Positions 4,450 through 54,464 of a stretch of DNA of 64,000 nucleotides are shown here, in pieces. The stretch lies in the NCBI GenBank assembly GCA_028865305.1, contig JAGWKM010000001.1, forward strand, positions 34,168-98,167, read 5' to 3'. The DNA is from Patescibacteria group bacterium. Its GTDB lineage: Bacteria; Patescibacteriota; Minisyncoccia; UBA6257; 2-01-FULL-56-20. A program made the position numbers and the translations under genes. The notes below the pieces were generated by a model that was not told where the DNA came from, did no database searches, and was given only the letters and a program-made list of their open reading frames with translations. The stretch's first letter is position 1; every line of letters starts with the position of its first letter.

Positions 4450-5439
4450 TCAGAACATCCGTTCTTGGATATTTTTCGGTTTTTCGGGATTTGATTTTTT
4501 CTTAGTCGCTCCAGTTCCATTCTCCATTCTCCCTTCTCTATTCTCCTCATTTTTCTCCATTCTCTTCAGCAGCGTCGCGAATCCTTTCTTCTGGAAATAA
4601 TCTATGGTTTCGAGGGGGATTGCTTCGGGGGTTGCGAGACCCTCGAGCGGGGGAATTTCGATGGGAACATGTTTTTCGAGGAGGACGAGTTCTTTTGAGA
4701 GCTCGGCTTCCTTTTTGAATGGCGCGAGGCGGGATTGGACGTTTGCGGGCTCGCCGGGGAGTTTGGCGTAAAGGTTTTCTATGGTGCCGAATTTTTCGAT
4801 GAGTTCGAGCGCGCGCTTGGGGCCGATGCCGGGGACGCCCTTGATATTGTCTGACGAGTCGCCGACAAGGGCTTTATAGTCGATCAACTGCTTTGGCTTC
4901 AGGGAATATTTTTCAAAAACGGCTGCTTCGTCGTAGGTCGTCGTGTCGCTGATGCCCTTGTTGAACGTGCGGACATAAATTTTTTCGTCTTCGACGAGCT
5001 GCAAGGTGTCGCGATCCCCGGTCAGAATAATTATTTTGAGTTCCTTTCCTTGTTCCTTGTTCCTTGTTCCTTGTTCCTTAAAACACTCCGCGAACGTCGC
5101 AATCAAATCATCCGCTTCGAAACCGGCCATTTCGAACGTTTTGACGCCGAATGTTTGGAAAAGATTTTTTGCTTCCTTCAGCTGTATGACCAATGCATCG
5201 GCGGTCGCGGGCCGCTGAGCTTTATATGCCGCGTATTTTTTGTCGCGGAAGGTGGGCTCGGGCCGGTCGAAAAGCGCGGCGGCGTAATCGGGCCGGTCTT
5301 CGCGCCAGAGTTTGAGAAGGATGCTCGCGAGGCCGTAGATCGCGCCCGTGGGTTCTCCGGCAGGATCGGTGAACGGCGGCAGGGCGTGGAACGAGCGGTG
5401 GATGATGGAATTGGCGTCGATGAGGAGCAGGGTTTTCAT
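4450..5439 (-). CDS. stand-alone 5'-3' exonuclease/flap endonuclease (PolA N-terminal domain only)
   Basis: LIDANS, YKAQR, EADD, TGDRD, GDSSDNIKGVPGIGPK; no polymerase domain follows. Confidence 0.92.
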   Translation of the reverse strand: MKTLLLIDANSIIHRSFHALPPFTDPAGEPTGAIYGLASILLKLWREDRPDYAAALFDRPEPTFRDKKYAAYKAQRPATADALVIQLKEAKNLFQTFGVKTFEMAGFEADDLIATFAECFKEQGTRNKEQGKELKIIILTGDRDTLQLVEDEKIYVRTFNKGISDTTTYDEAAVFEKYSLKPKQLIDYKALVGDSSDNIKGVPGIGPKRALELIEKFGTIENLYAKLPGEPANVQSRLAPFKKEAELSKELVLLEKHVPIEIPPLEGLATPEAIPLETIDYFQKKGFATLLKRMEKNEENREGRMENGTGATKKKSNPEKPKNIQERMF

Positions 5440-5523
5440 GGAATTTATCATACGTTTACTTGACTTATTTTTCAAAAAAATTACCATTTCCTTTGGCACA
5501 TTCAGCTTTTTCAGGAGGAAGCT

Positions 5524-5883
5524 TTGTCTTTGAGGGAACTGCCGTTGGTATTAATTGCAAGCCACCTTGAGCCTGCCTGGTCCGATAAAAGGGTGATCAT
5601 ATTGGCGCAGGTTTGGGACAAGGAACGGAGGGATTCGGTTCTCGTGCTCCGGGGTACGGTGCGCGGCGATTCGGATGACAATCTTTTGGCTTTGCAGAAC
5701 GAGGTGAAGCCGCACCGTTACCGGATTTTTTACCGGGGGCACGGTGAAATCAAAACTTTTGATGCCGAGGAGCGGCGGCTCGTAATACAAAGCCGGTATC
5801 CGGCCGTGAGGGAGCACGCCCTGCCTCTCTTAAGGCGGGCATATCCCCGGTTTGAGATCAGATTAATGCATGGCCATCCGTAA
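5524..5883 (+). CDS. hypothetical protein
   Basis: 119-aa ORF, AGGAGG upstream of TTG, followed by hairpin plus T-run. Confidence 0.6.
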   Translation: MSLRELPLVLIASHLEPAWSDKRVIILAQVWDKERRDSVLVLRGTVRGDSDDNLLALQNEVKPHRYRIFYRGHGEIKTFDAEERRLVIQSRYPAVREHALPLLRRAYPRFEIRLMHGHP

Positions 5884-5891
5884 GCCGGATT

Positions 5892-5918
5892 TGGCCGGTC
5901 GAAAGACCGGCTTTTTTA
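5892..5918 (+). terminator. intrinsic terminator
   Basis: GCCGGTC-GAAA-GACCGGC then TTTTTT. Confidence 0.7.
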
Positions 5919-5934
5919 TCACTTTCCAAACTTA

Positions 5935-6060
5935 AAACCGCACCCATAAGGGTGCGGATGAAGTTTTGTCCCACCGGCGCTTTGGCCGGTGGGACGCCGC
6001 CCCTCCGGGGCGGCGAAGAGGGAGAAGATACCCCGTCCGTGAGGGCGGGGTATCTTCATT
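5935..6060. repeat. cluster of four GC-rich hairpins, last one resembling IS200/IS605-type end
   Basis: CCGCACCC/GGGTGCGG, GTCCCACCGG/CCGGTGGGAC, CGCCGCCCC/GGGGCGGCG, GAAGATACCCCG..CGGGGTATCTTC. Confidence 0.6.
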
Positions 6061-6547
6061 TCATCGCTATCCTGCGTTCGTTCTCTTTTTTGCCGTGCGT
6101 GAATTTCAGCCAAATGGTTCCTTTCGGCAAAATTTTCCTGATCCGCTCCGGCCATTCGATGAGAATAAGATTTTCCGGGTTGGAGAGAATAAGTTTGAAT
6201 TCCAGTGCTTCCAGGTTTTCGGCTTTTTTCAACCGGTAAGCGTCAAAGTGGTAAAGGTTTTTAAAGTGCGGCCCCGTTCTCCGTTCTCCATTCTCCATTC
6301 TCCGTCTTCGGCTGATTTCATATCTTCGCATGATAATGAAGGTCGGGCTTACGGCGCGGCGCTTGATGCCAAAGCCGCGGAGGAACCCCTGGGTAAAGGT
6401 GGTTTTCCCGGCGCCGAGGTCGCCCTGGAGCGCGATGACAGTGGCGCCCGAAATTGCCAATGGCCGATTGCGAATGGCTAATTCGCGCGCCAGTTCCTCG
6501 CCTAATTTCTGCGTTTCTTCGGCGGAACGGGTTTTGTTGGTTTTCAT
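6056..6547 (-). CDS. tsaE: tRNA threonylcarbamoyladenosine biosynthesis ATPase TsaE
   Basis: GDLGAGKTT, SPTF, HFDAYRL, IEWPE; contains two heptamer-derived insertions. Confidence 0.95.
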   Translation of the reverse strand: MKTNKTRSAEETQKLGEELARELAIRNRPLAISGATVIALQGDLGAGKTTFTQGFLRGFGIKRRAVSPTFIIMRRYEISRRRRMENGERRTGPHFKNLYHFDAYRLKKAENLEALEFKLILSNPENLILIEWPERIRKILPKGTIWLKFTHGKKENERRIAMK

Positions 6548-6554
6548 AATAATT

Positions 6555-6838
6555 GTCATTCCGGCCACCGAGCCTGCCTGCCGGCAGGCAGACCGGAATT
6601 CAGTTTTAGAATATCTAATGTCTAATTAATAATTAATAACGAATGTCCAATATTAAATTTCCAACGGACATCCGGACATTATCCATTCGTTATTAATTAG
6701 ATATTATTAATTAGACATTGTCCCAATAATGCATTCGTTATTAATTAGTCATTATTAATTAGAAATTTCTCAAACTCTGGATCTCGGGTCTTGCTGTCGT
6801 CGAGCTATAATTGGGCGCAGCAATCCTGGGGCGGCAGA
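6555..6838. repeat. nested repeat complex: GTCATTCCGG REP-like palindrome, CCTGCCTGCCGGCAGGCAG palindrome, inverted AT-rich heptamer arrays
   Basis: direct inspection; TCTAATTAATAA..AACGAATG versus two copies of CATTCGTTATTAATTAG. Confidence 0.75.
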
Positions 6839-11028: not shown

Positions 11029-12546
11029 ATGACTATCGTTTTAGCGGTGGTTTTTCTGGCCATCGGCGCGGCGGCGGGCTACTTTGCCCGGCGGTACTCG
11101 GCGGCTAAAAAATTCGGCGAAGTCGAGGAGCGGATCAAGAAGCAGCTTTCAGACGCGGAAACGAAAGCGAAGGAAATCGTTGTCGAGGCGAAGGAGAAGT
11201 CCGCCTCGATTTTGGTCGATCTGAAGAACGAGGAAAAAGAACGGCGCAAGGAAATCGACGCCCACGAACAGCGGTTATTGAACAAAGAGGAGCAGCTCGA
11301 TAAACGGTCGGAGACGTTGTCAGTAGAGGAGGCCAAGATACGGTCACGGGAAGACCAATTGAGGAACAAGGAACAGGAAACAAGGAACAGGGAAGAGGAA
11401 ATCCAGAGCAAATTGGAAAAGATCGCTCAGCTTTCCGTGAAGGATGCGCGCGAAGAGATTGTCCGGCAGGCGAAGGAGGATCGGGCGCAGGATTTGGCCG
11501 CTTTGGTCCAAAAGATCGACCGCGAGAACCACGAAGAAGTGGAGAAGCGGGCTTCGGAAATCATCACGACGGCGCTCCAGCGTTACGCGCGGTCGCATGT
11601 CTCGGAAATCACGACGACCGTTTTTCCGCTGGGTGACGAGGAGTTGAAGGGAAAAATCATCGGCCGCGAGGGGCGGAATATCCGTGCGCTCGAACGCGCG
11701 ACCGGCGTCGAGTTCCTCATTGATGAGGTGCCGGAGGGCATCATTATTTCCTCGTGGGATCCGTTCCGGCGCGAAGTGGCTCGGGTTGCGCTTGAAAAAT
11801 TGCTGAAGGACGGCCGTATGCAGCCGGCGAAAATCGAGGAGAAGGTTGAGGAGGCGAAAGCGGAGCTCACGAAGCGGATGCAGCAGATCGGCGAAGCGAC
11901 GGCGCAGGACCTTGGGATTTTCGACCTGCCGAAAGAATTATTGCAGCTTATCGGGCGGCTTCATTTCCGTACGAGTTTCGGCCAGAACGTGCTGATACAT
12001 TCGACCGAGATGGCTTATCTTGCCGAGATGATGGCACGGGAGCTTGGCTTGAACGCCGACGTGGCGAAGCGGGGAGCGTTATTGCACGACATCGGCAAAG
12101 CGATCGACCAGGAAGTGGAGGGAACGCACGTGGAGCTTGGCATCAAGCTGCTCCAGAAATTCGGCGTGAATGAGGCGGTCGTGAATGCGATGCGGTCGCA
12201 CCATGAGGATTATCCGTACGCGAGTCCGGAAGCATACGTGGTAACGGCGGCGGATGTTTTGTCCGCGGCGCGGCCGGGAGCGCGGCGCGGGACGCTCGAG
12301 AATTACATCAAGCGGCTTGGAGATTTGGAAAAGATAGCAATGGATTTTCCCGGAGTGAAGCAGGCATATGCGATTTCGGCGGGCCGCGAGTTGCGCGTGT
12401 TCGTGGTTCCGGAGAAAGTTGATGATTTCAGGGCACTCGAATTGGCGCGGGAAATCGCGAACAAGATCCAGTCGGAGTTGAAGTATCCGGGCGAGATCAA
12501 AGTAAATGTGATCCGCGAAATCAGGGCGGTAGAATATGCGAGATAG
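11029..12546 (+). CDS. rny: ribonuclease Y
   Basis: N-terminal TM helix, coiled coil, KH (KGKIIGREGRNIR), HD (LLHDIGK), SAARPGAR. Confidence 0.98.
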   Translation: MTIVLAVVFLAIGAAAGYFARRYSAAKKFGEVEERIKKQLSDAETKAKEIVVEAKEKSASILVDLKNEEKERRKEIDAHEQRLLNKEEQLDKRSETLSVEEAKIRSREDQLRNKEQETRNREEEIQSKLEKIAQLSVKDAREEIVRQAKEDRAQDLAALVQKIDRENHEEVEKRASEIITTALQRYARSHVSEITTTVFPLGDEELKGKIIGREGRNIRALERATGVEFLIDEVPEGIIISSWDPFRREVARVALEKLLKDGRMQPAKIEEKVEEAKAELTKRMQQIGEATAQDLGIFDLPKELLQLIGRLHFRTSFGQNVLIHSTEMAYLAEMMARELGLNADVAKRGALLHDIGKAIDQEVEGTHVELGIKLLQKFGVNEAVVNAMRSHHEDYPYASPEAYVVTAADVLSAARPGARRGTLENYIKRLGDLEKIAMDFPGVKQAYAISAGRELRVFVVPEKVDDFRALELAREIANKIQSELKYPGEIKVNVIREIRAVEYAR

Positions 12547-13720: not shown

Positions 13721-13814
13721 ATAGTAAGAATACTAAATTCGAATGCACTTGTTTAGCTGTTGTGTTTGTGCACGCTGGCGTTCTATTTCGGATGGTGTAT
13801 AATTGAATTCACAT

Positions 13815-15476
13815 ATGGATACCATATTTTTGCATCCTGCGGCACTCTTCGTTGTCGTCGTTCTGCCCCTTTTCGGCATTGCCGCTAAAGTTTTCGGCGC
13901 CTCCTTCCAGAAAATCACCAAATGGTACCTTTATATCGCTGTTTTTTGCGTCATTGTCGTTATGGACTCTATTTTCTTTCCCTTTATCGGCGGGAAGGAT
14001 TGGTTTTTCCGGTTGGCGGTCGAACTTTCATTGATCTCAGCGCTCTTGTGGTGGGCGTTTGAGGCGCGGCAGGGCGAGTTCGAAGAACGGATCAGGGCAT
14101 TTTTTAAGAAACCGTTGGTCTTAGCCGTGAGCGCATTTGCTTTAATGGTGCTTTTGGCATCGCTTTTTGCATTTGACGCGCATGCGGGCTTTTGGTCAAA
14201 CTTCGAGCGCGGCGAGGGCGGTTTCCAAATGATCCATTATTGGCTGTTCTTCGTTTTGCTCGGGTTATTCCTTCGCGAAGAAAAAGAATGGAGGAGATTG
14301 CTCGGTTCTTCTTTGGTTGCGGCGGTTTTGATGATATTTTATGGTTTGCTTTCGATATCGGGGGCGCCTGGTTTTATTAGTCCCTACGCCGGAGGCGGAG
14401 CACCGAGCGGTTGGTTTGCCCAGCTTATCCAGGGCCGCTTCGAAGGATCGCTTGGCAATCCGGCTTACGTAGCGCCATATTTAATGTTTGCGATGTTTTT
14501 CGCTGCCTATTTATGGATTACGGGAGGAAGAAAGGAGGAGGACGGAAGACGGAGGACGCTTCGGAATTGGGGATATGGGATCCTTATCGTGGCGTTCCTG
14601 CTCTTTTTCGCATTATCCCAGACCCGCGGCGCTTTTGTCGGTTTAGTGGCTGGTATTTATGCTTTGCTGGTTTATTTTGGATATCAACAGCCGCGTTATC
14701 GGAAACTGATCCTTGGTATTCTGGCCGTCCTATTCCTGGTTGGCGGAATTATCGTCCATTATGTCCATCAGGAATTTTTGGTTAACCCGCAGAGCCTTTT
14801 GAGCGCAATCCCCGGCATCCGGCTTTTTGATTTGCCATTGAATAACAGCGTTCTTGCAATTGGGTGGATCGGCGCCATGCTGTTCGCGGCCATTGTTATG
14901 TTTGCCCGGGAAAGGAAATGGCTGTGGTGGGCACTCGCCGCGCTGATCGTGGTTGCGGCCATTGGCAGCTTGTATGTAATATCCATCGGCCGTTTTCCTT
15001 CCTTTAAAGATCCGACAACTGTCACGCGATTCTGGGTCTGGGGCGAGGCCTGGCAGGCATTTTTGGCACGGCCGGTTCTTGGCTGGGGTCCCGAAAATTT
15101 CACGGCGCCTTTCGACAAATATTTCAATCCGAATTTTTACGTCCCCGGCCAGAATACTGAAACCTGGTTCGACCGTGCCCACAGCGTATTCTTCGATTAT
15201 CTTGCCGAAACCGGGATTCTTGGCCTCCTCGCTTATATCAGCATGTTTGTCCTGTTTTACATTGAATTTTTCAAACGGCGGGGACGAAGGACGGAGGGCG
15301 GAGAGCCGAGGGCGGACCATACGCTTGCCCAGACGCTCGTGAATGGCATTTTCTTTACCATGCCGATCGCATATCTCGTTCAGGGCGTTGCCATTTTCGA
15401 TGTGCTGCCGATGTACATTCCGTTATTCATGTTCTTGGCGTTCAGCAATTTCTATTTCAGGGAACATAAAGCATAA
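13815..15476 (+). CDS. O-antigen ligase/oligosaccharyltransferase (Wzy_C) family protein
   Basis: multi-TM, SLGNP, SQTRGA, R..VW, GWGPENF, DRAHS....LAETGILG. Confidence 0.9.
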   Translation: MDTIFLHPAALFVVVVLPLFGIAAKVFGASFQKITKWYLYIAVFCVIVVMDSIFFPFIGGKDWFFRLAVELSLISALLWWAFEARQGEFEERIRAFFKKPLVLAVSAFALMVLLASLFAFDAHAGFWSNFERGEGGFQMIHYWLFFVLLGLFLREEKEWRRLLGSSLVAAVLMIFYGLLSISGAPGFISPYAGGGAPSGWFAQLIQGRFEGSLGNPAYVAPYLMFAMFFAAYLWITGGRKEEDGRRRTLRNWGYGILIVAFLLFFALSQTRGAFVGLVAGIYALLVYFGYQQPRYRKLILGILAVLFLVGGIIVHYVHQEFLVNPQSLLSAIPGIRLFDLPLNNSVLAIGWIGAMLFAAIVMFARERKWLWWALAALIVVAAIGSLYVISIGRFPSFKDPTTVTRFWVWGEAWQAFLARPVLGWGPENFTAPFDKYFNPNFYVPGQNTETWFDRAHSVFFDYLAETGILGLLAYISMFVLFYIEFFKRRGRRTEGGEPRADHTLAQTLVNGIFFTMPIAYLVQGVAIFDVLPMYIPLFMFLAFSNFYFREHKA

Positions 15477-22372: not shown

Positions 22373-24109
22373 ATGGCACGCCGACCGAAGAAAACCGCAC
22401 AGGGCCGGAGGACGAAATATATTTTCATCTCCGGAGGTGTGATGTCGTCGGTTGGGAAAGGCATTGCGGCGGCCTCTATCGGTAAAATTCTCCAGGCACG
22501 CGGCTTTGAGGTCACCGCCATCAAAATCGATCCCTATGTGAATGTCGACGCGGGCACCATGAACCCCACCGAACACGGTGAGGTTTTTGTTTTGGACGAC
22601 GGCATGGAATGCGATCAGGATATGGGCAATTACGAGCGGTTTCTCGACCGGGATTTGAGCCGGGCGAATTATATGACGACCGGCAGCGTTTATTTGGACC
22701 TTATCACGCGCGAACGGAATCTTGAGTTCCGCGGCCGCTGCGTGAATGTGGTGCCCGATGTGCCGCTTGAGGTTATCCGCAAAATTGAGCTTGCCGCAAA
22801 GAAAACGAAGGCGGATATCGTGCTCGTCGAGATCGGCGGCACGGTCGGCGATTATCAGAACCTACTCTTCCTCGAAGCGGTCCGATTGCTGAAATTCAAG
22901 CAGCCGCACGACGTGCTCTTGGCGCTCGTGAGCTACATCCCGTCGCTTTCCGGCGGCGGCAACGAATTAAAGACGAAACCGACGCAGCATGCGGTGCGCA
23001 ACCTGAATTCCGCCGGTTTGCTGCCGGACCTCGTCATAGCCCGCGCCGCGGTTGCCCTCGACAAGAAGCGCAAGGAAAAACTGGAATTCATGTGCGGCCT
23101 CGAAAAGGGGTCGGTGATTTCCGCGCCGGATGTTTCAAGCGTTTACGACGTGCCGCTCAATTTTGAAAAAGATAAGATCAGCGACCAGATTTTGGAAAAA
23201 CTGGATTTGATTTCCCGGAAGCGCGACCTGAAGGAATGGCGGCGGCTGTCGTCCGTGGTGCACAACGCGAAGCAAACGGTGCGCATCGGCATTGTCGGAA
23301 AATATTTCGGCACCGGCAGGTTTATTCTGACGGATTCGTACATTTCCGTGATCGAGGCGGTGAAGCACGCGGCCTATGCTGTGAAGCGCAAACCGATATT
23401 GGAATGGGTTGATGCGGAGGAATTCGAAAAACGTCCGCAGAAGGTACAGGAGCTTTCGAAGTATGGTGGTATTATTGTGCCGGGCGGATTCGGATCGCGC
23501 GGCGTGGAGGGAATCATCAATGCCATCCGCTATTGCCGCGAGAAAAAGATCCCATATTTCGGTTTGTGCTACGGCATGCAGCTCGCGGTCGTCGAATTCG
23601 CGCGGCACGTGGCCGGTCTGAAGCGGGCGCATACGACGGAGATCGACAAAAAGACGCCGGAGCCGGTGATTGACATCATGGCGGACCAGAAGGAAAAGCT
23701 CGCGGTCAAAAATTATGGCGGTACCATGCGCCTTGGCGCCTATCCGGCCATTCTGAAGAAGGGCAGTATTGCTTTCAGAGCGTATGGCGGCAAGCGGCAG
23801 ATTTCGGAGCGGCATCGGCACCGGTACGAGGTCAATCCGCAGTATATTGACCGGATAGAAAAGAAGGGCTTGGTTTTTTCCGGCACATCGCCCGACCGCC
23901 GCCTGATGGAAATCGCCGAATTGCCGGCCGATAAGCATCCATTCTTCTTGGGCACCCAGTTCCATCCTGAATTGAAAACCCGCCCCATCGGCGGCCATCC
24001 CTTATTCAAAGAATTCATGAAAGCGGCGGCGAAGCGGAGCGCATTGATCGTGCCGGCATCATTTTCAAGACTTCCCTTGCGGGCGCGGGTTCTGGCGAAA
24101 AAGAAATAA
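22373..24109 (+). CDS. pyrG: CTP synthase
   Basis: GGVMSSVGKG, KIDPYVNVDAGTMNP.EHGE, KTKPTQH, GLCYGMQ, QFHPE. Confidence 0.98.
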   Translation: MARRPKKTAQGRRTKYIFISGGVMSSVGKGIAAASIGKILQARGFEVTAIKIDPYVNVDAGTMNPTEHGEVFVLDDGMECDQDMGNYERFLDRDLSRANYMTTGSVYLDLITRERNLEFRGRCVNVVPDVPLEVIRKIELAAKKTKADIVLVEIGGTVGDYQNLLFLEAVRLLKFKQPHDVLLALVSYIPSLSGGGNELKTKPTQHAVRNLNSAGLLPDLVIARAAVALDKKRKEKLEFMCGLEKGSVISAPDVSSVYDVPLNFEKDKISDQILEKLDLISRKRDLKEWRRLSSVVHNAKQTVRIGIVGKYFGTGRFILTDSYISVIEAVKHAAYAVKRKPILEWVDAEEFEKRPQKVQELSKYGGIIVPGGFGSRGVEGIINAIRYCREKKIPYFGLCYGMQLAVVEFARHVAGLKRAHTTEIDKKTPEPVIDIMADQKEKLAVKNYGGTMRLGAYPAILKKGSIAFRAYGGKRQISERHRHRYEVNPQYIDRIEKKGLVFSGTSPDRRLMEIAELPADKHPFFLGTQFHPELKTRPIGGHPLFKEFMKAAAKRSALIVPASFSRLPLRARVLAKKK

Positions 24110-24189
24110 CGGAGAATGGAGTACGGAGTATGGAGAATGAATGTCCCATTCTCCATTCTCCATTCTCCATTCTCCATTCTCCATTCTCC
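24110..24189. repeat. inverted heptamer pair (GGAGAAT)n / (CCATTCT)n
   Basis: fills the pyrG-holA spacer; six CCATTCT units end two bases before the holA ATG. Confidence 0.95.
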
Positions 24190-35398: not shown

Positions 35399-37930
35399 AT
35401 GATGAACGGCATTACCTTTAACGATCCAAGATTGAAGATGACCATCGGTGGCCGGTTTTTGGTCCGCGTCGTGAGCTACGTCGCTTACCTGTTCCTGTTT
35501 GCGGCAACTTTTACCCTGCTCATCTCGACCTCCGCGCGTCTGCAATTTTTAGGCTTATTTTTCCTGCTCGTAATCATTGACCTTGCGGTGCATCGGAGAG
35601 AGGGGGATGTTCCCATTGCGGAATTGCCGATAGCGAACGGCAAATTGCCGGCGATGCCGGTCAATGCCGCAAAGGCGATGCTGCCGACGTCATTTTCCAT
35701 TATTGAACGCGCTTTCGATCGGGCTCTCATGGCGCATCATGATTTTTATCCGGAGGTCGCGGGCCGTTTGGCTGACTTGCCGGAAATCGGAGAAGGTCTG
35801 CGGCGCCTGGATGCGGATCCGAAAGAATTCAGGGAGAAAGCGGAGGAAATGATGGAAGAGGGCGGAAAGCTTCCGGCATCCGATGTCCATCGGTCGCCGG
35901 ATGCCGTGCGCCGCCAAGCCGAAGCGATTGCGATTGCCGCTTTTGAGGTTGCCGTCCAAGGAGGCCATAATTTCGTGAAGCCGAGCGATCTGTTTTCGGC
36001 GCTGCTCCAGGTTCGCGATGAAACTATCGATCGCCTTTTCAATTTTTTTAATATCGAACAGGGCGATTTGGAGCGTGCTTTGATTTTGAGCTCCGCGGCG
36101 GCGCGCGCCCGCAAGCGTCTGCCGGATGCGCTTGGCGGTTTCCGTTTTGAAACGCATCGTACCGTCCGGCACCGGATCATGAACCGCGCCTGGACCTCGC
36201 GGCCGACGCCCGTGCTCGACCGCTATGGCGATGATTTGACCGATCTTGCGCGCGGCGCGGAAATCGGTTTTTTGATCGGCCACGAACAGGAATATGAAAA
36301 GTTGGTTGAAACCCTGGGCCGGCCGGTGAATCCGAACGCGCTCCTCGTCGGCGAACCGGGCATCGGCAAGGAGACGCTGGTGCAGCACTTGGCGGCGCAG
36401 CTCACCAAGGACCGGGTGCCGCGCGCGCTCTTCGATAAACGGTTGGTTTCGCTTCGGCTGCAGGATCTCGTGGCCGGCGCAACGCCCGACGAATTGCATT
36501 TGCGCCTGAAGCGGATCGTGGACGAGATCCGGATGGCGGGCAATGTCATCATTTATATTCCCGACATCCATAACCTGGTTCGGACCTCCGGCACGGCGTT
36601 CATGTCGGCAGCGGATGCTTTGATGCCGGTCATCATGGATAATGTTTTTCCGATTGTCGGCACGACCTATCCGCGGGAATTCAAGCAGCTCATGGAACCG
36701 CGGAGCGATTTTCTGGGCGCTTTTGAAGTCATTCCGGTGGACGAGGTAAGCCCGGCGGATGCGGAAAAAATCCTTGCTTATGGCAGTTTGCTTTTGGAGC
36801 ATGAGTCGCGCATCGTCGTGAGCTTCGGCGCCATCAAGCGCGCCGTGGTTTTAGCCAAAAAATATTTCCATGACCGGTTTTTGCCTTCGAGCGCGGAGGA
36901 ATTATTGAAAGCGGCTCTGATTTCCGCGGAGCAGCGTGGTGAAAAAACGCTCGGGCCGGATCGCGTGACGGCCGTGGCGGAGGCGAAAACGCATATTCCG
37001 CTGCACGAGGCGGCCGGAGCTGAGGCGGAGCGGTTGCTCCACATGGAAGACGTAATCCACGAACGGTTAATCGGCCAGGACGAGGCGGTGCGGGCGGTTT
37101 CGCAGGCGCTCCGCGAATACCGGAGCGGGTTGGCGCGCGCCGGCGGACCGATCGCGAGTTTTCTCTTTGTCGGCCCGACCGGCGTCGGGAAAACTGAGCT
37201 TGCAAAAACCCTGGCAAAGATCCAGTTTGGTTCAGAAAAGATGATGGTCCGGTTCGACATGACGGAATATCAGGACAAGCAAAGCTTCTTCCGGTTCATT
37301 GGTTCTCCCGACGGCCAGACGGACGGCGCGCTCACCGAGGCCGTTCGCGCGAAACCGTACAGCTTGATCCTGCTCGATGAATTTGAAAAAGCGCATCCGG
37401 ATATTTTGAACCTGTTCCTCCAGGTTTTCGACGACGGCCGGTTAACGGACAACCTCAGCCGGACCGTGGATTTTACGAACACCATCATCATTGCCACTTC
37501 GAACGCCCATTCGGACATCATCAATGAAGCGCTCGGGAAAGGCGAGACCATGGAGCAGATCGGGGAATACCTTAAGGCGCGGCTTACGGACGTCTTCAAG
37601 CCGGAATTGCTGAACCGGTTTTCGAAGATCATCGTGTTCCGGAATCTGAAACCGGACGAGCTTGGGAAGATCGTTGTTTTGAATTTGGACGAATTGGCGG
37701 AAACCGTGAAGGGGCAGGGAATTTATTTGGAATATGATCCGGCGGCCGTGCAGCTTCTCGCGAAACTCGGCTATGACCCGGCGTTCGGCGCGCGGCCGCT
37801 GCGAAGGGTCATTGAAGAGAAAATCCGCGCGCCTTTGGCAGAAGCAATTTTGGCAAGGAAAGTGGAGAAGGGGAGGAAGCTGAAATTGGTCGTTCGGGAA
37901 CCTGACGATTTCGATTTCGTATCAGCTTGA
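35399..37930 (+). CDS. membrane-anchored ClpA/B/C-family AAA+ ATPase
   Basis: 2 TM; GEPGIGK; GPTGVGKTE, LLDEFEKAH, DDGRLTD, FGARPLRR. Confidence 0.93.
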   Translation: MMNGITFNDPRLKMTIGGRFLVRVVSYVAYLFLFAATFTLLISTSARLQFLGLFFLLVIIDLAVHRREGDVPIAELPIANGKLPAMPVNAAKAMLPTSFSIIERAFDRALMAHHDFYPEVAGRLADLPEIGEGLRRLDADPKEFREKAEEMMEEGGKLPASDVHRSPDAVRRQAEAIAIAAFEVAVQGGHNFVKPSDLFSALLQVRDETIDRLFNFFNIEQGDLERALILSSAAARARKRLPDALGGFRFETHRTVRHRIMNRAWTSRPTPVLDRYGDDLTDLARGAEIGFLIGHEQEYEKLVETLGRPVNPNALLVGEPGIGKETLVQHLAAQLTKDRVPRALFDKRLVSLRLQDLVAGATPDELHLRLKRIVDEIRMAGNVIIYIPDIHNLVRTSGTAFMSAADALMPVIMDNVFPIVGTTYPREFKQLMEPRSDFLGAFEVIPVDEVSPADAEKILAYGSLLLEHESRIVVSFGAIKRAVVLAKKYFHDRFLPSSAEELLKAALISAEQRGEKTLGPDRVTAVAEAKTHIPLHEAAGAEAERLLHMEDVIHERLIGQDEAVRAVSQALREYRSGLARAGGPIASFLFVGPTGVGKTELAKTLAKIQFGSEKMMVRFDMTEYQDKQSFFRFIGSPDGQTDGALTEAVRAKPYSLILLDEFEKAHPDILNLFLQVFDDGRLTDNLSRTVDFTNTIIIATSNAHSDIINEALGKGETMEQIGEYLKARLTDVFKPELLNRFSKIIVFRNLKPDELGKIVVLNLDELAETVKGQGIYLEYDPAAVQLLAKLGYDPAFGARPLRRVIEEKIRAPLAEAILARKVEKGRKLKLVVREPDDFDFVSA

Positions 37931-48693: not shown

Positions 48694-51600
48694 CTAAATT
48701 TTCCTTATCCCAACCCAAACAGGATCGTTTTCCAGCTTTGTTTCCTCCTCGGCGTCGAATTTTTCGGTACGCTTGTATTCAACGAGTCCTGCGCCGACAT
48801 CGGATTTCAACGGCAGTTCGTTCTTTTGGACGGTAGCGCGGATCCCGGCTGGCAATTCGAGATAGAGCGCGATTTTGTCTTTCGGCTCGAGGCCGGCTTT
48901 CTGGCGCAACTCTTGGACCATGCGCGCGAGTTCGCGGAGCAATCCTTCTTCATGCAGCTCCGGTGTGATGGTTATATTCAACTTCGAATCGACTTCCAAA
49001 GTTTTATCAAAAGAAACTTTTTTGACATTGATCTCATCGCGGAGGATCACAAGAAATTCTTCCTTGCCTTCCAGCTCCATATTTTTCACCGTGAACTCCG
49101 AAAGCGGTTGGCGGACCTTAATTTTTGCATCTGCACGCGCCGCCAATCCCAATGCCGCCAGATCTCGCGCTGTTTGCATGTTTTCAAGAATTTCATTCCA
49201 TGCTCCATGCTCCATGCTCCATTCTCCATTCGCAGGCCATTCCTCCAAATGCACCGATTCCTTTGGCCCGCCGAGCGCCGCGTACAATCCTTCTGCAAAA
49301 AACGGCGTGAACGGCGCAAGGAGTTTGGTCAATGAAAGCAAAACAAAATGGAGCGTCGCTGAAGCGTTTTCGTAATCCGTTCTCCGTTCTCCGTTCTCCA
49401 TTCTCCATTCTTTTCCCTGCAGCCGTTTCCGCGAACGGCGGATGTACCAGCGGGATAAATCATCGACGAACGAATCGATTTCGATTGCCGCTTCGCGGAT
49501 TTCATAGCGGTCCAATTTTTCGGTCATTGAAGCGGTCAATTCAGCCAATCGCGCGGCGATCCATCGGTCGAGGATATTACGAGAGGAGGATGGATCGTGG
49601 AGGATGGAGGATGGGGCCGCGTAGGTTTTCCAAAAGACGAATGAATTGTAGATGATCAAATGCGTCCGCCGGAGCGCCTTCGCCACTTCCTGCTCGTCGA
49701 AATTTTTCGGTTCGCCGAACGGCGTGCCGGTGTAGAAATACCAGCGCACCGCGTCGGCGCCGAATTTGTCGATGACCGAAAACGGTTCGACGATATTGCC
49801 CTTCGATTTCGACATCTTCTGGCCGAACTTATCATTGATCAGGCCGAACGTGATGACGTTCTTATAGGGCGCTTCAAAACCGAGCGCGGTTGCGATGGCA
49901 AGCAGGGTGTAAAACCAGCCGCGGGTCTGGTCCATTCCTTCGGCGATGTAGTCGGCGGGGTAAGCGTGCGGCGGTTTTGTTCCATCCCATTCTCTATTCT
50001 CCATTCTCCGTTCTCCGCTTCCTCCAAACGGCCAGTGCACTTCCGCAAACGGCATGGCGCCCGAATCATACCAGACATCCGCCACTTCTTTTACGCGCCC
50101 CATCCGGTTTCCGCATCGCGGGCACGGAAGCGCGATTTCGTCCGCATAAGGCCGGTGCAGGTCCGCCGCTCCGGTTTCGTTCCGTGGGATGATTTTGAGC
50201 GGCAGTTCCCTGATTTCGGCAAAGCCGATGAATTCGCCCGGTTTCGCCCGTTTTTCATCGATGGCCCGTTTTTCACTCCATCCTTCGGCGACCTGGAAGA
50301 ACATCCAGATCGGATACTCGTGCGAAACGATCAGAATATTCTTGCCTTCATATTTCGATTCGCAATCCCGGAGGAATTCCCAAATCCGCGACCTGAGGTC
50401 GCGCACCGACTCGCCGCCCTCGGGCCGCTTTTCAAACCGCGATTCGTAGGTCGGATAAAATTCGGCATATTTCTTGTCGGGCAGGCCGGTGAGCGTCGGG
50501 CCGAGATGGATTTCTTCGATGCGTTTGTCGAATGATACTTCCGGCTTGCCGAGCACGGCGTAGTCGATGGTCTCGGTTTCCTTGGTGCGCGTGACGTCGG
50601 AGGAAATGATGATGTCGATTTTCTCCCCCTTTTTATCGAGTTGGCGCTTGAATTGGGTAATTGATTTCAAAACTTCTTCCTGGCCGCGCGGCGTGAGATG
50701 CAGGTATTTCCGCTGGCCGGAGTCGATGACGTTGAAGATGTTGCTTTCCGCTTCGCCGTGGCGCATGACCCAATAATGGTTTTTGGGCCCGCCGGCGAGT
50801 TCGTTCAATTCGTCCATGCTGCCGACGATCTCATGCCGGCCGCATTTGCCGCACTCCCAGATCGGCAGCGGCGCGCCCCAATACCGTTCGCGCGACAGGT
50901 TCCAGTCCTTCACTTCGCGCAGCCATTCGCCGAAGCGGCCTTCTTTCACGTGCTGCGGCATCCAGTTGATCGTTTCATTGCGTTTCAATAATTCGTTCCG
51001 CAGCCTGCTCATCGCGATGAACCAGGATGTGCGGGCATAATAAAGGATGGGCGTGCCGCAGCGCCAGCAATACGGATATTCGTGCGCGTATGGTTCGATG
51101 CGGAGCAGGGCGCCGCGTTGCTTCAGGTGTTCGAAAATGCGTTCTTCGGTTTCTTTCGATTTTGCGTATTCGCCGGCGAGCGCCGGAACGTCTTTCGTGA
51201 ACTTTCCTTCCTCATCCACGGTGTGGTGCTGCGGCAGGCCGATTTCCTGCCCGAGCCGGTAATCGTCTTCGCCGTACATCACGGCGGTGTGCACGACGCC
51301 GGTGCCGTCGGTCGTCGTTACGAAATCCGCCGGATAGATTTTGTAAGAAACCGGCGATTTCAATTTTTCTACATCGAAGAGCGGTTCGTATTCGAGGCCG
51401 ACCAAATCCGCGCCGGCGAGCTCGTGTGATTTTCCCGCGTTTTCCAGTCCGATGTCTTTCAATCGGCCTGCGGCAGCGATCACATATTCGCCATCTTTTT
51501 CTATGGCGCGATATTTGACATTCGGGCCGACTGCGAGCGCCACATTGCCGGGTAAAGTCCATGGGGTCGTGGTCCAAGAAAGAATGTAGATGTGATCTTC

Positions 51601-52305
51601 GGGTTTGATGAGCTGCGGGCCGATTTTTTGCCCCGGTTTCAATTTGAACTTCAGATAAACCGACTGGTCGGTCGCTTCCTTGTATCCTTGCGCCAGTTCA
51701 TGCGACGAGAGCGCGGTGCCGCAGCGCGTACACCAAGGGACTACCTTGTGCCCCTTATAAAGGAGGCCGTTCTTGTGGATTTGCGCCAGGGTAAACCAAA
51801 CCGTTTCGACGTATTCCGGCGAGTAGGTGATGTACGCGTTTTTGAGATCGAGCCAGTAGCCGATCCGTTCCGTGAGCCGCTCCCATTCGTCTTTATGGAT
51901 CCAAACCTGCTCCTGTGCGGCCTTGTTGAATTTCTCGACGCCGAAGGCTTCGATTTCTTTTTTCGTTTTGAACCCGAGCGCTTTTTCGGCTGCCATTTCG
52001 ACCGGCAGCCCGTGCGTGTCCCAGCCGGCGCGCCGCGGCACGTAATAGCCGCGCATGGTCTTGTAGCGCAGCATGACGTCCTTTACGACGCGCGCGAGCA
52101 CGTGGTGGATACCCGGCTTCCCGTTCGCGTACGGCGGCCCTTCGTAGAAAACGAATTCTTTTTTGTCCGCTTTTCGGTCTTCGTCTTCCCGTAAAGATTT
52201 CTCGAAAATTTTATTTGATCCCCAAAACGCCAGGACTTCTTCTTCAAGCTTCGGCAGGTTGAATTCACCTTTCAGAAAATCCGGTTTTTCGGATGATTTT
52301 GGCAT
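48694..52305 (-). CDS. ileS: isoleucine--tRNA ligase type 2 with inserted histidine-phosphatase domain
   Basis: EGPPYANG.PGIHH, GWDTHGLP, WTTTPWTLP, DWNLSRERYWG, DQTRGWF, KMSKS. Confidence 0.97.
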   Translation of the reverse strand: MPKSSEKPDFLKGEFNLPKLEEEVLAFWGSNKIFEKSLREDEDRKADKKEFVFYEGPPYANGKPGIHHVLARVVKDVMLRYKTMRGYYVPRRAGWDTHGLPVEMAAEKALGFKTKKEIEAFGVEKFNKAAQEQVWIHKDEWERLTERIGYWLDLKNAYITYSPEYVETVWFTLAQIHKNGLLYKGHKVVPWCTRCGTALSSHELAQGYKEATDQSVYLKFKLKPGQKIGPQLIKPEDHIYILSWTTTPWTLPGNVALAVGPNVKYRAIEKDGEYVIAAAGRLKDIGLENAGKSHELAGADLVGLEYEPLFDVEKLKSPVSYKIYPADFVTTTDGTGVVHTAVMYGEDDYRLGQEIGLPQHHTVDEEGKFTKDVPALAGEYAKSKETEERIFEHLKQRGALLRIEPYAHEYPYCWRCGTPILYYARTSWFIAMSRLRNELLKRNETINWMPQHVKEGRFGEWLREVKDWNLSRERYWGAPLPIWECGKCGRHEIVGSMDELNELAGGPKNHYWVMRHGEAESNIFNVIDSGQRKYLHLTPRGQEEVLKSITQFKRQLDKKGEKIDIIISSDVTRTKETETIDYAVLGKPEVSFDKRIEEIHLGPTLTGLPDKKYAEFYPTYESRFEKRPEGGESVRDLRSRIWEFLRDCESKYEGKNILIVSHEYPIWMFFQVAEGWSEKRAIDEKRAKPGEFIGFAEIRELPLKIIPRNETGAADLHRPYADEIALPCPRCGNRMGRVKEVADVWYDSGAMPFAEVHWPFGGSGERRMENREWDGTKPPHAYPADYIAEGMDQTRGWFYTLLAIATALGFEAPYKNVITFGLINDKFGQKMSKSKGNIVEPFSVIDKFGADAVRWYFYTGTPFGEPKNFDEQEVAKALRRTHLIIYNSFVFWKTYAAPSSILHDPSSSRNILDRWIAARLAELTASMTEKLDRYEIREAAIEIDSFVDDLSRWYIRRSRKRLQGKEWRMENGERRTDYENASATLHFVLLSLTKLLAPFTPFFAEGLYAALGGPKESVHLEEWPANGEWSMEHGAWNEILENMQTARDLAALGLAARADAKIKVRQPLSEFTVKNMELEGKEEFLVILRDEINVKKVSFDKTLEVDSKLNITITPELHEEGLLRELARMVQELRQKAGLEPKDKIALYLELPAGIRATVQKNELPLKSDVGAGLVEYKRTEKFDAEEETKLENDPVWVGIRKI

Positions 52306-52445
52306 TTTGTTTACCTTTGCAAACCTTTATTCCCAAACTCTTGAGAACATTGGAATAGCAACTTTAGTCCGCTTAATTCATTCAAAATACCAGATATTCC
52401 CATAATTTTCCAATAAAAAAGCGGGGCCGAAGCTCCGCGCATTTT

Positions 52446-52631
52446 TTATTTTGTCCTTCGGGAAAGGAGGAGATTGAGGTCGTCCTCGCGGACGCGGCAT
52501 TCGATGCCTTTAAAAACCGGCCTTAACGAACCCCTGCCCATCAACCGCCGGACGGATTCTTTGCTGTCGTTCAGGGCTTCCGCTGCCTGAGCGATGGTCA
52601 GGGAGGGGATATCCGATTTCTTTTCTACCAT
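52446..52631 (-). CDS. small excisionase-like HTH protein
   Basis: LTIAQAAEAL..S..SVRRL...GSL....RV...DL. Confidence 0.7.
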   Translation of the reverse strand: MVEKKSDIPSLTIAQAAEALNDSKESVRRLMGRGSLRPVFKGIECRVREDDLNLLLSRRTK

Positions 52632-52664
52632 ATGTACCCCGCTTATTAAAAGGTAGCAAACCAA

Positions 52665-54464
52665 TCAGATCTTTTCCAGCGTTTTGATGCCGAGGAGGTG
52701 CAGGCCGGTTCGGATGGTTTGGGCAGCGGTTTCGGCAAGCTGGAGCCGCGCTGTCCTCCGTTCTCCATTCTCATCTTTTAAGATTGGCGTTGTTTCGTAG
52801 AATTTGTTTGCAATCGAAGCAAGTTTATGGAGGTAGGTCGCCAATGTGCTTGGCGTGAAATTGACGCCGGCGCGCTGGACAATATCCGGAAATTCCAAAA
52901 TTTTCCGCATGAGCGAAAGCTCAAGCTGAGAAGTGAGAAATGAGAAGTGAGAAGTGGGAGATTTCCCATTTCCCACCTCCCATTTCCCACCTCCCATTTC
53001 CCACTTTCGCAAAATACTGCGCAATCTTGCGAAAGCGTACTGCAGATACGGGCCGGAATCGCCTTCGAATGAAAGTGATTTTTCGAAATCAAAGACGATG
53101 TCTTGGCCGGGATTTTGCCGCAGGATGGAATATTTGATGGCACCGATCGCGATGGCCTCGGTTGCCGCCGCGCGCTCTGCCGCATCCAGTTCGCTTCGTT
53201 CGCTTACGAACGCCTGCAATTTTTCTTTTGCCTGTCCGATGAGCGCTTCCGCCGCGATTATGTTTCCTTTGCGCGAAGACATTTTGCCGGATTCGAACCG
53301 CAGCATACCGTGGCCGATGTGCTTGGTCTTGCCGGCGGCTTCGGGCATCAGGAGATCCATCGCCTTCAAAAGCACGCGGAAATAGTCGTTCTGTTCGTTG
53401 CCGGTGATCACGATCGACTGGTCGAAATGGAAATCCTGATATTTTCGGGCAGTGAGGCCGAGCTCTTTCGCCTCATAGGTCGGCACGCCTTTCGAGTTTA
53501 CGAATACGCGCGTGTGCAGGCCGTGCGCTTCACCCTTGAAGACGACCGCCCCGTCGCTTTTTTCAAGGATGTTTTCCTTCAGTCCCTTTTCGACCGCTTT
53601 TAGCCCTTCTTCCGCCACCTCGCTTTCCCAATAGTTCCGGACGAATTTCGTATCGAGCCGCGCAAAAATTTCCTGGAAATGCCTGATGCTGATTTCGCGG
53701 CCCCAGGCATAGAGTTCATTGACTGCCGGGTCGGATTTTTCAAAAACCGTTTTGTTCAGCCCGTCGATTTCCTTTTTTGCTGATTCGTCTTCTTCATATT
53801 TCGTTGAGCCGAAAACGTAAGCATCCGCCCAAAATGCCAATTGCGTCTTAGCATCGGATGTCCGGAGGGCATCTGCCGTCAAGCCCTCCTGCCGCATTCG
53901 TTCGCGCACGCCGAAGATCGCTTTTGCCACATGCAGGCCGACATCGCCGCCGTAGGAAAGCCGCTTTACGTCCGCGCCCTGGGCCTCGATGAGCCGTGCG
54001 ATTGATTCGCCGATGGCGTTCGACATCAGATGCCCGATGTGGAACAGCTTGAACGGGTTCGGGTCGGTGAATTCGATGATGACTTTTGAGTCGGAGAATG
54101 GAGAATGGAGATTGGAGAATGAAATTGATTCGGCCATCGGCCATCGGCCATCGGCCATTTTCCAAAATTCCTCGGAAATGGTTTCCTTTCCCAGCCAAAA
54201 GTTAATGAACCCCGGACCGACTGCTTCCACTTTTTCAAAAAATCCAACGGGTGCCGCCTTGGCGATTTCTTCCGCCAGTTTTTTAGCGCGTTCAATTGTT
54301 TTTTCATTCCATTCTCCATTCTCCATTCTCCATTCTCCTTCTTTCATCCGCATCGCCACATTTGTCGAATAGTGCCCAAAAGTGCTTTCTTCGGGAACAA
54401 AAAGCTCGATGGCGGCATCTGCGCCCAAAACCTTTTTTATGATTTCCAGTATTTTTTCTTTCAT
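52665..54464 (-). CDS. argS: arginine--tRNA ligase
   Basis: FGHYSTNVAM, GPGFINF, PNPFK.FHIGH, KMSSRKG, GDSGPYLQY. Confidence 0.97.
   Translation of the reverse strand: MKEKILEIIKKVLGADAAIELFVPEESTFGHYSTNVAMRMKEGEWRMENGEWNEKTIERAKKLAEEIAKAAPVGFFEKVEAVGPGFINFWLGKETISEEFWKMADGRWPMAESISFSNLHSPFSDSKVIIEFTDPNPFKLFHIGHLMSNAIGESIARLIEAQGADVKRLSYGGDVGLHVAKAIFGVRERMRQEGLTADALRTSDAKTQLAFWADAYVFGSTKYEEDESAKKEIDGLNKTVFEKSDPAVNELYAWGREISIRHFQEIFARLDTKFVRNYWESEVAEEGLKAVEKGLKENILEKSDGAVVFKGEAHGLHTRVFVNSKGVPTYEAKELGLTARKYQDFHFDQSIVITGNEQNDYFRVLLKAMDLLMPEAAGKTKHIGHGMLRFESGKMSSRKGNIIAAEALIGQAKEKLQAFVSERSELDAAERAAATEAIAIGAIKYSILRQNPGQDIVFDFEKSLSFEGDSGPYLQYAFARLRSILRKWEMGGGKWEVGNGKSPTSHFSFLTSQLELSLMRKILEFPDIVQRAGVNFTPSTLATYLHKLASIANKFYETTPILKDENGERRTARLQLAETAAQTIRTGLHLLGIKTLEKI

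Follow-up and report, generated by a model that had tools for sequence, protein, structure and literature searches.

The 64,000-nucleotide stretch considered here, called the window, covers positions 34,168 to 98,167 of contig JAGWKM010000001.1 in the Patescibacteria group bacterium assembly GCA_028865305.1, and is held by a genome bin to which we refer as G000 (its relatives are numbered G001, L061 and so on). Among its genes are those for a 5'-3' exonuclease, TsaE, RNase Y, a Wzy_C O-antigen ligase, a Mur ligase, a beta-CASP ribonuclease, a permease, a Clp-type ATPase, and the isoleucyl- and arginyl-tRNA synthetases (IleRS and ArgRS), names given in a first-pass annotation of the sequence and confirmed by Pfam. 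Short tandem arrays of 7-nt units lie within many of these genes, and further heptamer arrays are found between genes. Their nature and probable origin are the subject of this study.

Heptamer arrays within core genes of the window

Tandem arrays were called with Tandem Repeats Finder (TRF), and those with a score of at least 40 are termed strong. The window gave 79 TRF rows, of which 37 had period 7 (18 of them scoring at least 40), one had period 6 and seven had period 8. Exact runs with at least 11 matched positions were found 13 times at period 7, against 0.0 in 20 dinucleotide-preserving shuffles, and not at all in the window at periods 6, 8-13 or 15; the single run at period 14 falls on a multiple of 7. 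The whole bin behaved alike, with 470 rows of period 7 against 84 of period 6 and 138 of period 8, or 201 against 8 and 16 at a score of at least 40, and its next highest peaks were the multiples 14 and 21. The specificity for period 7 that the first-pass annotation had claimed is demonstrated by these counts, and the equal enrichment of periods 5, 6 and 8 that it had named as the contrary outcome was not seen. Its arithmetic was also correct, in that an array of 7-nt units encodes one cyclic heptapeptide in all three frames. Dense heptamer repeats, at approximately 4 arrays per 10 kb, are a real observation in this genome. The arrays and candidate arrays associated with genes of the window are as follows, all called by TRF unless stated otherwise, with percentages as reported for the array.

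4516-4546, minus strand: TGGAGAA-family array, 4.4 copies (83%), in the stand-alone 5'-3' exonuclease (4450-5499), within its hypervariable C-terminal tail
5046-5079, minus strand: perfect CAAGGAA array, 4.9 copies, in the exonuclease
6274-6305, minus strand: CGGAGAA/TGGAGAA-type array, 4.6 copies, in TsaE (6056-6568)
6453-6486, minus strand: possible decayed array in TsaE, self-match 16/27 at period 7, no TRF call
11362-11394, plus strand: CAAGGAA-family array, 4.7 copies (80%), in the N-terminal region of RNase Y
14533-14558, plus strand: degenerate purine-rich array, 3.9 copies, in the Wzy_C protein (13803-15476)
15277-15316, plus strand: degenerate array, 5.9 copies (73%), in the Wzy_C protein
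around 27890: murE example, self-match 36/84; the nearest period-7 TRF row is a GC-rich run of 2.4 copies at 27936-27952
29050-29069, plus strand: CAAGGGA array in the beta-CASP RNase (28991-30358)
32054-32090, plus strand: CAAGGAA-family array, 5.3 copies (76%), in the permease (31467-32564)
35615-35652, plus strand: marginal Clp example, self-match 13/31, no period-7 TRF call
35870-35912, plus strand: marginal Clp example, self-match 20/36, no period-7 TRF call
49197-49229, minus strand: TGGAGCA array, 4.7 copies (96%), in a variable-length linker of IleRS (48694-52305)
49376-49411, minus strand: CGGAGAA array, 5.1 copies (96%), in IleRS
49585-49614, minus strand: TGGAGAA-family array in antisense orientation, 4.3 copies (73%), in a hypervariable linker of IleRS
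49987-50016, minus strand: TGGAGAA array, 4.3 copies (86%), in a variable linker of IleRS
52927-53008, minus strand: two adjoining arrays (4.3 and 6.7 copies, starting at 52927 and 52961) in the linker of ArgRS that precedes the anticodon-binding domain (residues ~519-546)
54093-54158, minus strand: two adjoining ArgRS arrays (starting at 54093 and 54130), an antisense TGGAGAA array of 4.1 copies and a perfect array of 4.1 copies of the private unit TGGCCGA, residues ~136-157
54308-54342, minus strand: TGGAGAA array, 5.1 copies (96%), in the N-terminal domain of ArgRS

At least 17 of these arrays are solid and in frame, within a gene total stated as nine; the per-gene tally names eight, with two arrays in the exonuclease, one in TsaE, one in RNase Y, two in the Wzy_C protein, one in the beta-CASP protein, one in the permease, four in IleRS and five in ArgRS. 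The claim of in-frame arrays stands for all 17. It does not hold for four other sites put forward with them, namely the second TsaE site, murE and the two Clp sites, which are weak or degenerate: self-matches at period 7 amount to 42-59% of positions, and none of the four sets of coordinates received a period-7 call from TRF. In the Clp region it returned a period-10 row instead, at 35646-35669.

Alignment to orthologs shows several of the encoded peptides to be extra residues. At the CAAGGAA site of the exonuclease, G000 is eight amino acids longer than 11 of 13 orthologs and five and seven longer than the other two, and the insert corresponds to a 9-residue gap in the solved Pol I structure 6vde, between a helix and the LTGDRD strand. 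The TsaE of G000 is the longest at its array when set against all 16 orthologs, by 3 to 12 amino acids (12 in 8/16), and there the insert matches a 15-residue gap in structure 1htw. In ArgRS, the array at 54308 is an 8-residue insertion missing from 18 of 19 orthologs, and the pair at 54093-54158 jointly adds eight amino acids relative to most of the 19. The beta-CASP array adds seven amino acids relative to four of six orthologs; the IleRS array at 49376 (residues 965-977) adds seven relative to six of 16 and at least 15 relative to seven. Among the few orthologs of the Wzy_C protein, the array at 14533-14558 adds five and eight amino acids relative to two and that at 15277-15316 adds four relative to one.

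In the fold predicted for the beta-CASP protein by AlphaFold2 from an alignment of 32 sequences (pLDDT 82, pTM 0.83), the array residues form a beta-hairpin turn between strands 16-21 and 31-37, where the pLDDT of the array block is 61 as compared to 84 and 79 on its flanks. Considering the aligned orthologs, the gaps against 6vde and 1htw and this model together, the arrays fall in loops or hypervariable linkers. That the peptides are lineage-specific is likewise demonstrated, since orthologs lack them in the ArgRS, exonuclease, TsaE, beta-CASP and IleRS alignments.

The first-pass annotation had proposed that only frame-preserving insertions in loops survive. The loop location and the frame filter are supported, but insertion is not the sole outcome. 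No consistent gain in length was seen at RNase Y (net change 0 relative to both orthologs), at the permease (-1 to +2 amino acids relative to four orthologs) or at three IleRS linkers, namely those at 49197 (-4 to +5 relative to 15 orthologs), 49585 (-17 to +3) and 49987 (-12 to +12), and the lengths of these segments differ in every lineage. Arrays therefore often overwrite variable loops and do not only add to them.

Two other features of the synthetases deserve mention. IleRS holds a histidine-phosphatase domain (His_Phos_1; Pfam E = 2e-22) in the middle of the synthetase, at 50266-50772 of the window on the minus strand (residues 512-680). Single tblastn alignments over residues ~3-1203 in relatives suggest that this insertion is common to the order. 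The ArgRS of G000 (52665-54563) is 47-50% identical to those of G011, G009, G006 and G028, which represent four other genera or families, and 41% identical to that of the same-genus G001, which has the sequence type found in most relatives. This could reflect replacement of the gene, or the mixed bin described below may have distorted the taxonomic placement.

Array growth, reading frame and the composition of the bin

The clearest indications that arrays grow in place come from the beta-CASP and exonuclease sites, judged by comparison of sequences. The closest beta-CASP ortholog available, from a same-genus relative, is 83% identical. Its loop is of ancestral length, with a proto-repeat of 12 nt (1.7 copies) at the array site. 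G000 continues the sequence of this proto-repeat by exactly 21 nt, or seven amino acids, which demonstrates one change from seed to array. At the exonuclease site, the DNA of the nearest ortholog is already unit-like. A metagenome scan with the exonuclease for near-identical strains gave best matches of 74-79% amino acid identity, and no variant duplicate contigs bearing arrays were found within the G000 bin. The stretch itself was located in 11 entries from three studies, of mine drainage and soil, all of them stored as contigs and giving no basis for a statement on habitat.

The share of arrays lying inside genes was estimated in two ways. The first was a calibrated flank test, which required the frame running through an array to outscore the other five on each of its 150-nt flanks; its sensitivity was 0.82, and a single flank passed by chance with a frequency of 0.006. 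Coding sequence continued on both sides in one frame for 111 of 452 arrays, and for 68 of 197 at a TRF score of at least 40. Simple gene calls placed 187 of 458 arrays within genes. Roughly a quarter to two-fifths (25-40%) of the arrays are therefore intragenic by these estimates. Two other criteria were dropped: spanning by an open reading frame (ORF) of at least 150 amino acids (250 arrays) was inflated because stop-free arrays lengthen ORFs, and a first codon-score threshold was too strict (35 arrays).

Arrays inside genes keep to a narrow length. Among strong arrays, 50 of 66 deep intragenic ones measure 28-35 nt (~4.4 copies) and two reach at least 42 nt, as compared to 22 and 15, respectively, of 57 strictly intergenic ones (odds ratio 5.0, p = 4.5e-5). 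This comparison excludes arrays of the palindromic element described below, which had confounded an earlier comparison of coding and non-coding arrays. So sharp a quantum is the expected outcome if 7-nt units are added and selection then favours a restored frame and a modest size; one proto-unit, a few bases of microhomology and three added units would make ~31 nt. Since 23 of the 68 strong intragenic arrays are perfect, the process that formed them is recent.

When repeats are described from a fragmented metagenome bin, the concern arises that they are artefacts of assembly or sequencing. G000 comprises 1.99 Mb in 388 contigs, with 8% contamination. The arrays are confined to 69 of the 388 contigs (1.11 Mb), and 33 contigs of at least 5 kb (336 kb) have none at all, where ~4 per 10 kb would be expected; the 39-kb contig C7 alone has 0 against ~16 expected. 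The array-free contigs share little with the others, as array-bearing contigs hold homologs of only 8 of their 249 long ORFs, and 40 of their long ORFs have paralogs 54-94% identical among those same contigs. Among the contigs inspected, phage portal proteins of three different types are encoded on C7, C238 and C249, with a terminase also on C7, and family-A polymerases on C347 and on C15, which lies outside the 33 array-free contigs and has two arrays. About six paralogous family-A polymerase genes of ~700 amino acids occur in the phage contigs of the bin. The bin is thus made up of a cellular genome of ~1.1 Mb, to which the arrays belong, together with phage contigs, and the latter account for much of its excess size relative to the 0.5-1.3 Mb of its relatives.

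That the arrays belong to the cellular part disfavours an artefact, as phage contig C7 comes from the same assembly and has none. Furthermore, every array in an essential gene keeps the frame, independent assemblies of relatives show the same pattern, and contig ends are not enriched (15 arrays, 11.7 expected). An artefactual origin is accordingly barely credible to us, despite the fragmentation and contamination of the bin.

Unit families, non-coding arrays and relatives

The bin contains 171 canonical heptamer units, yet these are far from equally used. TGGAGAA forms 53 arrays and CAAGGAA 17. When the 68 strong intragenic arrays are sorted by unit, 34 differ from TGGAGAA, and 13 from CAAGGAA, by one mismatch at most, while 15 have other shared units and six have private ones. 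With 47 of 68 in two genome-private families, the 'many different' units of the first-pass annotation were an overstatement. The same holds in the window, where 12 of the 17 solid intragenic arrays are within one mismatch of TGGAGAA or CAAGGAA. Its related proposal, that the period is fixed and the sequence free, is sound across relatives, where units differ and the period is shared, but not within G000, where the units are not free.

Abundance of the heptamer itself does not account for this preference. As a singleton, TGGAGAA is about as frequent as expected (observed/expected 0.8-1.2), and there are 53 arrays on ~120-180 singleton sites per rotation, as compared to ~3 arrays on ~355 sites for TGGCCGA. 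Array formation per singleton site is hence ~40 times that of an ordinary heptamer such as TGGCCGA. One explanation is that the dominant arrays did not grow from local seeds but were copied from existing ones, as members of a dispersed repeat family private to the genome that spreads by ectopic template switching, by microhomology-primed gene conversion or as a small non-autonomous mobile element. Under this explanation the two families would be natural, as would the 11 of 28 distinct units that lie within one mismatch of a master, where 4-14% is expected, the 79 exact three-copy occurrences of TGGAGAA in G000 as against one in a single genome of 400 others in the phylum, and its occurrence within genes in either orientation (by the ORF criterion, 28 sense and 21 antisense). 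Many perfect arrays also share one form of 30-31 nt, singleton sites are not enriched, and the palindrome and inverted pairs described below show that dispersal of repeats does occur here. However, inspection by eye revealed no conserved termini or target-site duplications at the array junctions, the beta-CASP site has its seed in the sister genome and gained exactly 21 nt in G000, and the exonuclease ortholog is unit-like. Moreover, private and minor units make arrays of the same size, and intergenic lengths are broad with no module size. We therefore regard dispersal as the main rival to growth in place, albeit a fairly unlikely one.

The purine-rich strand noted in the first-pass annotation is real: 92 of 130 ORF-spanned arrays have at most one or at least six purines per unit. 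Non-coding arrays lack this skew (6 of 44 are as extreme). Avoidance of stop codons was rejected as its cause, since the corresponding null gives 15-16% extreme units as compared to the 71% observed. Most of the skew is due to the two dominant families, with a possible contribution from the purine-rich codons that hydrophilic loops use.

Outside genes, the commonest unit of all is of the TTATTAA type (80 rows), and none of its 80 arrays lies within a called gene. These arrays are the arms of a dispersed, near-perfect palindrome of ~110 nt, which is represented by 151 arm cores (at most two mismatches) on 23 contigs and by 61 pairs of arms whose inner distance is 37-39 nt. The consensus has a folding energy of -50 kcal/mol and a sequence in phase with 7-nt words, and about a quarter of the period-7 rows (109/467) lie within 70 nt of a core. 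A search against Rfam gave no credible match (best E-value 0.3). The element is private to G000, with 133 cores as compared to 0-1 in each of 30 relatives, and is scarce in convergent spacers (2/73, against ~15%). In its many near-identical intergenic copies with inverted arms it resembles a miniature inverted-repeat transposable element (MITE) or a repetitive extragenic palindrome (REP), and it is possibly MITE/REP-like or a regulatory palindrome. Inverted pairs, in which an array is followed within 30 nt by its reverse complement, occur at least 15 times in G000, with folding energies of -5 to -67 kcal/mol (12 of 15 at -26 or stronger). The non-coding features of the window are the following.

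6600-6770, unstranded: copy of the palindromic element with an extra right arm, its arms reported by TRF as TTATTAA-type arrays
24109-24191, unstranded: inverted TGGAGAA-family pair (3.9 and 6.6 copies), hairpin of -42 kcal/mol
57923-57991, unstranded: inverted pair (4.3 and 4.4 copies), hairpin of -36 kcal/mol

Both inverted pairs of the window fill stop-to-ATG spacers between co-directional genes. The first occupies the spacer from a stop codon at 24107-24109 to the probable ATG of the next gene at 24192, and the second lies between a stop codon at 57916-57918 and a small ORF whose ATG is at 57996. This ORF (57996-58166), directly after the heptamer hairpin, encodes ~56 hydrophobic, Trp-rich amino acids, and a perfect AGTTTTC array of 3.4 copies (58171-58194) begins five bases past its stop codon.

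These locations bear on the idea that the arrays are kept for a function, either of the heptapeptides or of an RNA or DNA motif (the units hold a Shine-Dalgarno-like GGAG). Hairpins in stop-to-start spacers could affect mRNA stability or translation, and both the avoidance of convergent spacers by the palindromic element and a purine skew above the stop-avoidance null would fit this idea. For the intragenic arrays, however, the two orientations specify unrelated peptides at sites that are hypervariable in every lineage, relatives have unrelated units at the same loops or, in the closest cases, no arrays, and the predicted structure is a plain exposed turn. Retention for a function consequently seems very improbable to us.

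The load in relatives (0.5-1.3 Mb genomes labelled Paceibacterota, Parcubacteria or Minisyncoccia) was estimated from 18-66 kb sampled per genome. It is patchy: strong period-7 arrays per 10 kb number 2.6 in G002, 1.5 in G001, 1.2 in G018 and 1.1 in G028, and 0 in seven genomes, as compared to ~1.8 on the array-bearing contigs of G000. Units differ genome by genome, and the copy number is again ~4.3-5. In a further 40 genomes of the class or phylum (736 kb), period 7 gave 116 rows, as opposed to 34 and 53 at periods 6 and 8, and the distribution was again uneven, five of these genomes having 4-7 strong arrays in 20 kb. The closest relatives by exonuclease (61-67% amino acid identity; six contigs, 71 kb) have only five period-7 rows, so the load of G000 is recent.

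Permissive loops have been used repeatedly. Five of 20 genomes (G000, G001, G002, G011 and G018) have period-7 arrays in the ArgRS linker, with five different units, and G001 also has its own array at the 54093-54158 site. The beta-CASP hairpin turn has arrays in G000 and in one of 66 other species (2/67). Unrelated insertions occupy this turn (~29045-29080) in other species: L177 has a Gly/Ala-rich addition of nine amino acids and L178 one of two, and L183 has a GAGTCAA heptamer array. The turn is a general indel hot spot.

Origin of the arrays and their place among known repeats

The first-pass annotation found no responsible enzyme in the window, and none emerged here among the gene families tested or around the reverse transcriptases (RTs). 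Six families were compared across 21 sampled genomes, and none distinguishes genomes of high load from those of low load; the Pol I polymerase domain occurs in 2/9 high- and 3/10 low-load genomes, DinB in 4/9 and 4/10, and RT in 8/9 and 6/12. The suggestion that some genes co-occur with heptamer load thus survives as a weak trend for RTs among kindred genomes, but no family discriminates. A search of 30 relatives found MutS in none, and the one match in G000 lies on an array-free 1.8-kb contig. RecJ reached its cut-off in 1/30 relatives, a DnaQ-type exonuclease domain (RNase_T) was found in 7/30, and the Pol I polymerase domain was strong in 13/30 and not found in 17/30. In G000 and the relatives nearest to it, the 5'-3' exonuclease stands alone as a 5'-nuclease; in the more distant L061 and L062 it is fused to a Pol I polymerase. 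Absences such as these may make slipped intermediates long-lived, but low-load genomes share them.

A dedicated enzyme that writes arrays of fixed period, such as an RT copying a short template or a nuclease making 7-nt staggered cuts followed by fill-in, would suit the strict period, the variation of units by lineage and a load as patchy as an accessory gene. RT genes are present in 13 of 18 family members, and the bin has five RT matches, one of them on the contig of the window (353 amino acids; G000:C379:121628-122689) with a best match to the group II intron type (127 bits vs 300). Nevertheless, the RTs fall below every curated cut-off (127-138 bits vs 300), are group-II/DGR-like (DGR, diversity-generating retroelement), and have nothing repeat-related adjoining them. 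The RT trend is weak among genomes that are kin, G028 has a high load without an RT match, and a single template cannot yield 171 canonical units. In addition, according to the relevant passages of PMC4692102 and PMC4679880, heptamer excess occurs in many unrelated bacteria, which favours a property of core replication. A dedicated enzyme is thus unlikely in our view. Nor would one be needed, as the addition of 21 nt to a seed of 1.7 copies has the signature of in-place slippage.

The interpretation that we favour, and which we hold to be probable though by no means secure, is that the arrays are heptanucleotide long simple sequence repeats (SSRs), similar to the short tandemly repeated repetitive (STRR) sequences, which have grown in place by slippage or strand switching with a 7-nt register and have then been subject to selection. 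Out-of-register DNA synthesis with an intrinsic 7-nt register would make arrays in place, and strand switching would yield the inverted pairs, in a lineage where MutS-type mismatch repair and, mostly, RecJ were not detected. The process would act chromosome-wide and produce arrays of any copy number. Genes would then retain those that are stop-free and restore the frame (typically three added units, i.e., 21 nt or seven amino acids) in tolerant surface loops and linkers, while between genes arrays could lengthen, pair as hairpins or belong to the dispersed palindromic element. We infer that the polymerase sets the 7-nt register. The preference for two units probably reflects a sequence-dependent step, be it stalling where the motif is bound or modified, or the copying of one array into another.

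Several observations weigh against growth by slippage from local seeds. The main one, which simple slippage leaves unexplained, is the preference for certain units: random local seeds do not account for 47 of 68 strong intragenic arrays in two families, nor for 53 TGGAGAA arrays on ~120-180 sites when TGGCCGA has ~3 on ~355. TGGAGAA also occurs in both orientations inside genes, and the purine skew (92/130) is far above the 15-16% given by stop avoidance. Net changes in length are often not multiples of seven amino acids (+8, +12, 0). Finally, the load in the 21 sampled genomes did not follow any of the replication or repair gene families compared, and the absence of MutS is common to low-load relatives, so it does not explain the patchiness.

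The excess of heptamers in prokaryotes is already published, and G000 is a dense, coding-biased and lineage-patchy case of a known repeat class, not a new type of system. As far as the relevant passages of PMC4692102 and PMC4679880 go, heptanucleotides outnumber all other long SSRs in many prokaryotes (work of Mrazek, Guo and Shah 2007, as cited there), a finding for which the same passages attribute to Mrazek 2007 the proposal that slippage is favoured as ~7 nt contact the polymerase. G000 has the same properties, with at least three head-to-tail 7-nt copies, over-representation of length 7 relative to neighbouring lengths and shuffles, and a phylogenetically scattered occurrence. Coding-region repeats are described in those passages as mostly having units divisible by three; the arrays of G000 differ in being 25-40% intragenic, many in essential genes, at ~4 per 10 kb. 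Full-text literature searching turned up nothing on heptamer arrays in Patescibacteria or the Candidate Phyla Radiation (CPR), and the phylum is not named in the relevant passages.

Among individual systems, the STRR sequences of heterocystous cyanobacteria are described as intergenic. They resemble the arrays of G000 in that a few genome-specific heptamers each form many dispersed arrays (TGGAGAA 53 and CAAGGAA 17 in G000). Given that location, they differ from G000, where 111/452 to 187/458 arrays are intragenic. The STRR1-3 units have no three-copy exact occurrences in G000 and form 0, 2 and 0 TRF arrays. The passages of PMC4692102 relevant here mention STRR heptamers for Calothrix PCC7601, and describe GGGAATC of Xanthomonas and GGGGA(T/C)T of Nostoc as G-quadruplex-forming and mostly intergenic, near ORF ends. 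The latter two share with G000 a lineage-private heptamer, the use of both strands without replication-strand bias, occasional inverted stem-loop pairs and variation in length between close species; in contrast to them, the units of G000 are not G-runs and a large share is intragenic. The TAACTGA direct repeats of marine Beggiatoaceae and some cyanobacteria, which carry forward stops and lie mainly just upstream of start codons in the account of PMC4679880 drawn on here, likewise involve one favoured heptamer that expands, as TGGAGAA does, while its single-mismatch kin rarely do despite similar singleton frequencies. None of the Xanthomonas, Nostoc and TAACTGA units forms arrays in G000.

Borg tandem repeats have intragenic units always divisible by three and create disordered protein regions, according to the corresponding passages of PMC9879509. 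Like the arrays of G000, they are genome-specific, recent and perfect, encode low-complexity peptides without a frame break, have partial repeats on their flanks and are discussed in terms of slippage. The unit in G000 is 7 nt, however, and the frame is kept only by copy number (three added units). Phase-variable contingency loci, at which SSRs switch genes on and off, are similar in having non-triplet repeats in or beside genes that could shift frame by one unit. Theirs, however, are found in surface or host-interaction genes or the promoters of these and act by frameshift, whereas those of G000 lie in the middle of ORFs in housekeeping genes (synthetases, TsaE, RNase Y, nucleases), for which a shifted frame would be lethal.

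A more speculative extension, which we advance tentatively and would not bet on, is that some CPR lineages have a sequence-directed amplifying step beyond slippage, by which one or two master heptamers private to each genome are preferentially expanded or copied at any site, in either orientation and even within essential genes. If true, heptamer turnover would be the main engine rewriting the surface loops of core proteins in reduced genomes. As the co-binned phages are array-free and have their own family-A polymerase, the 7-nt register would then be set by the host replisome or by a host factor bound to the master motif, and the question 'why seven?' would become approachable by experiment.

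Non-triplet repeats are normally purged from essential coding sequence, as one slipped unit destroys the gene. Here, a genome of ~1.1 Mb tolerates more than 100 in-frame heptamer arrays, and related lineages have done so independently, with other units and sometimes in the same loops. For the annotation and alignment of CPR proteins this is a warning that lineage-specific inserts may be derived from repeats. The availability of related genomes with high and zero load could allow the 7-nt slippage preference to be traced to a feature of the replisome or of repair. The arrays furthermore provide a natural experiment on the reshaping of protein loops by biased mutation under weak selection, in genomes that are reduced and probably symbiotic.

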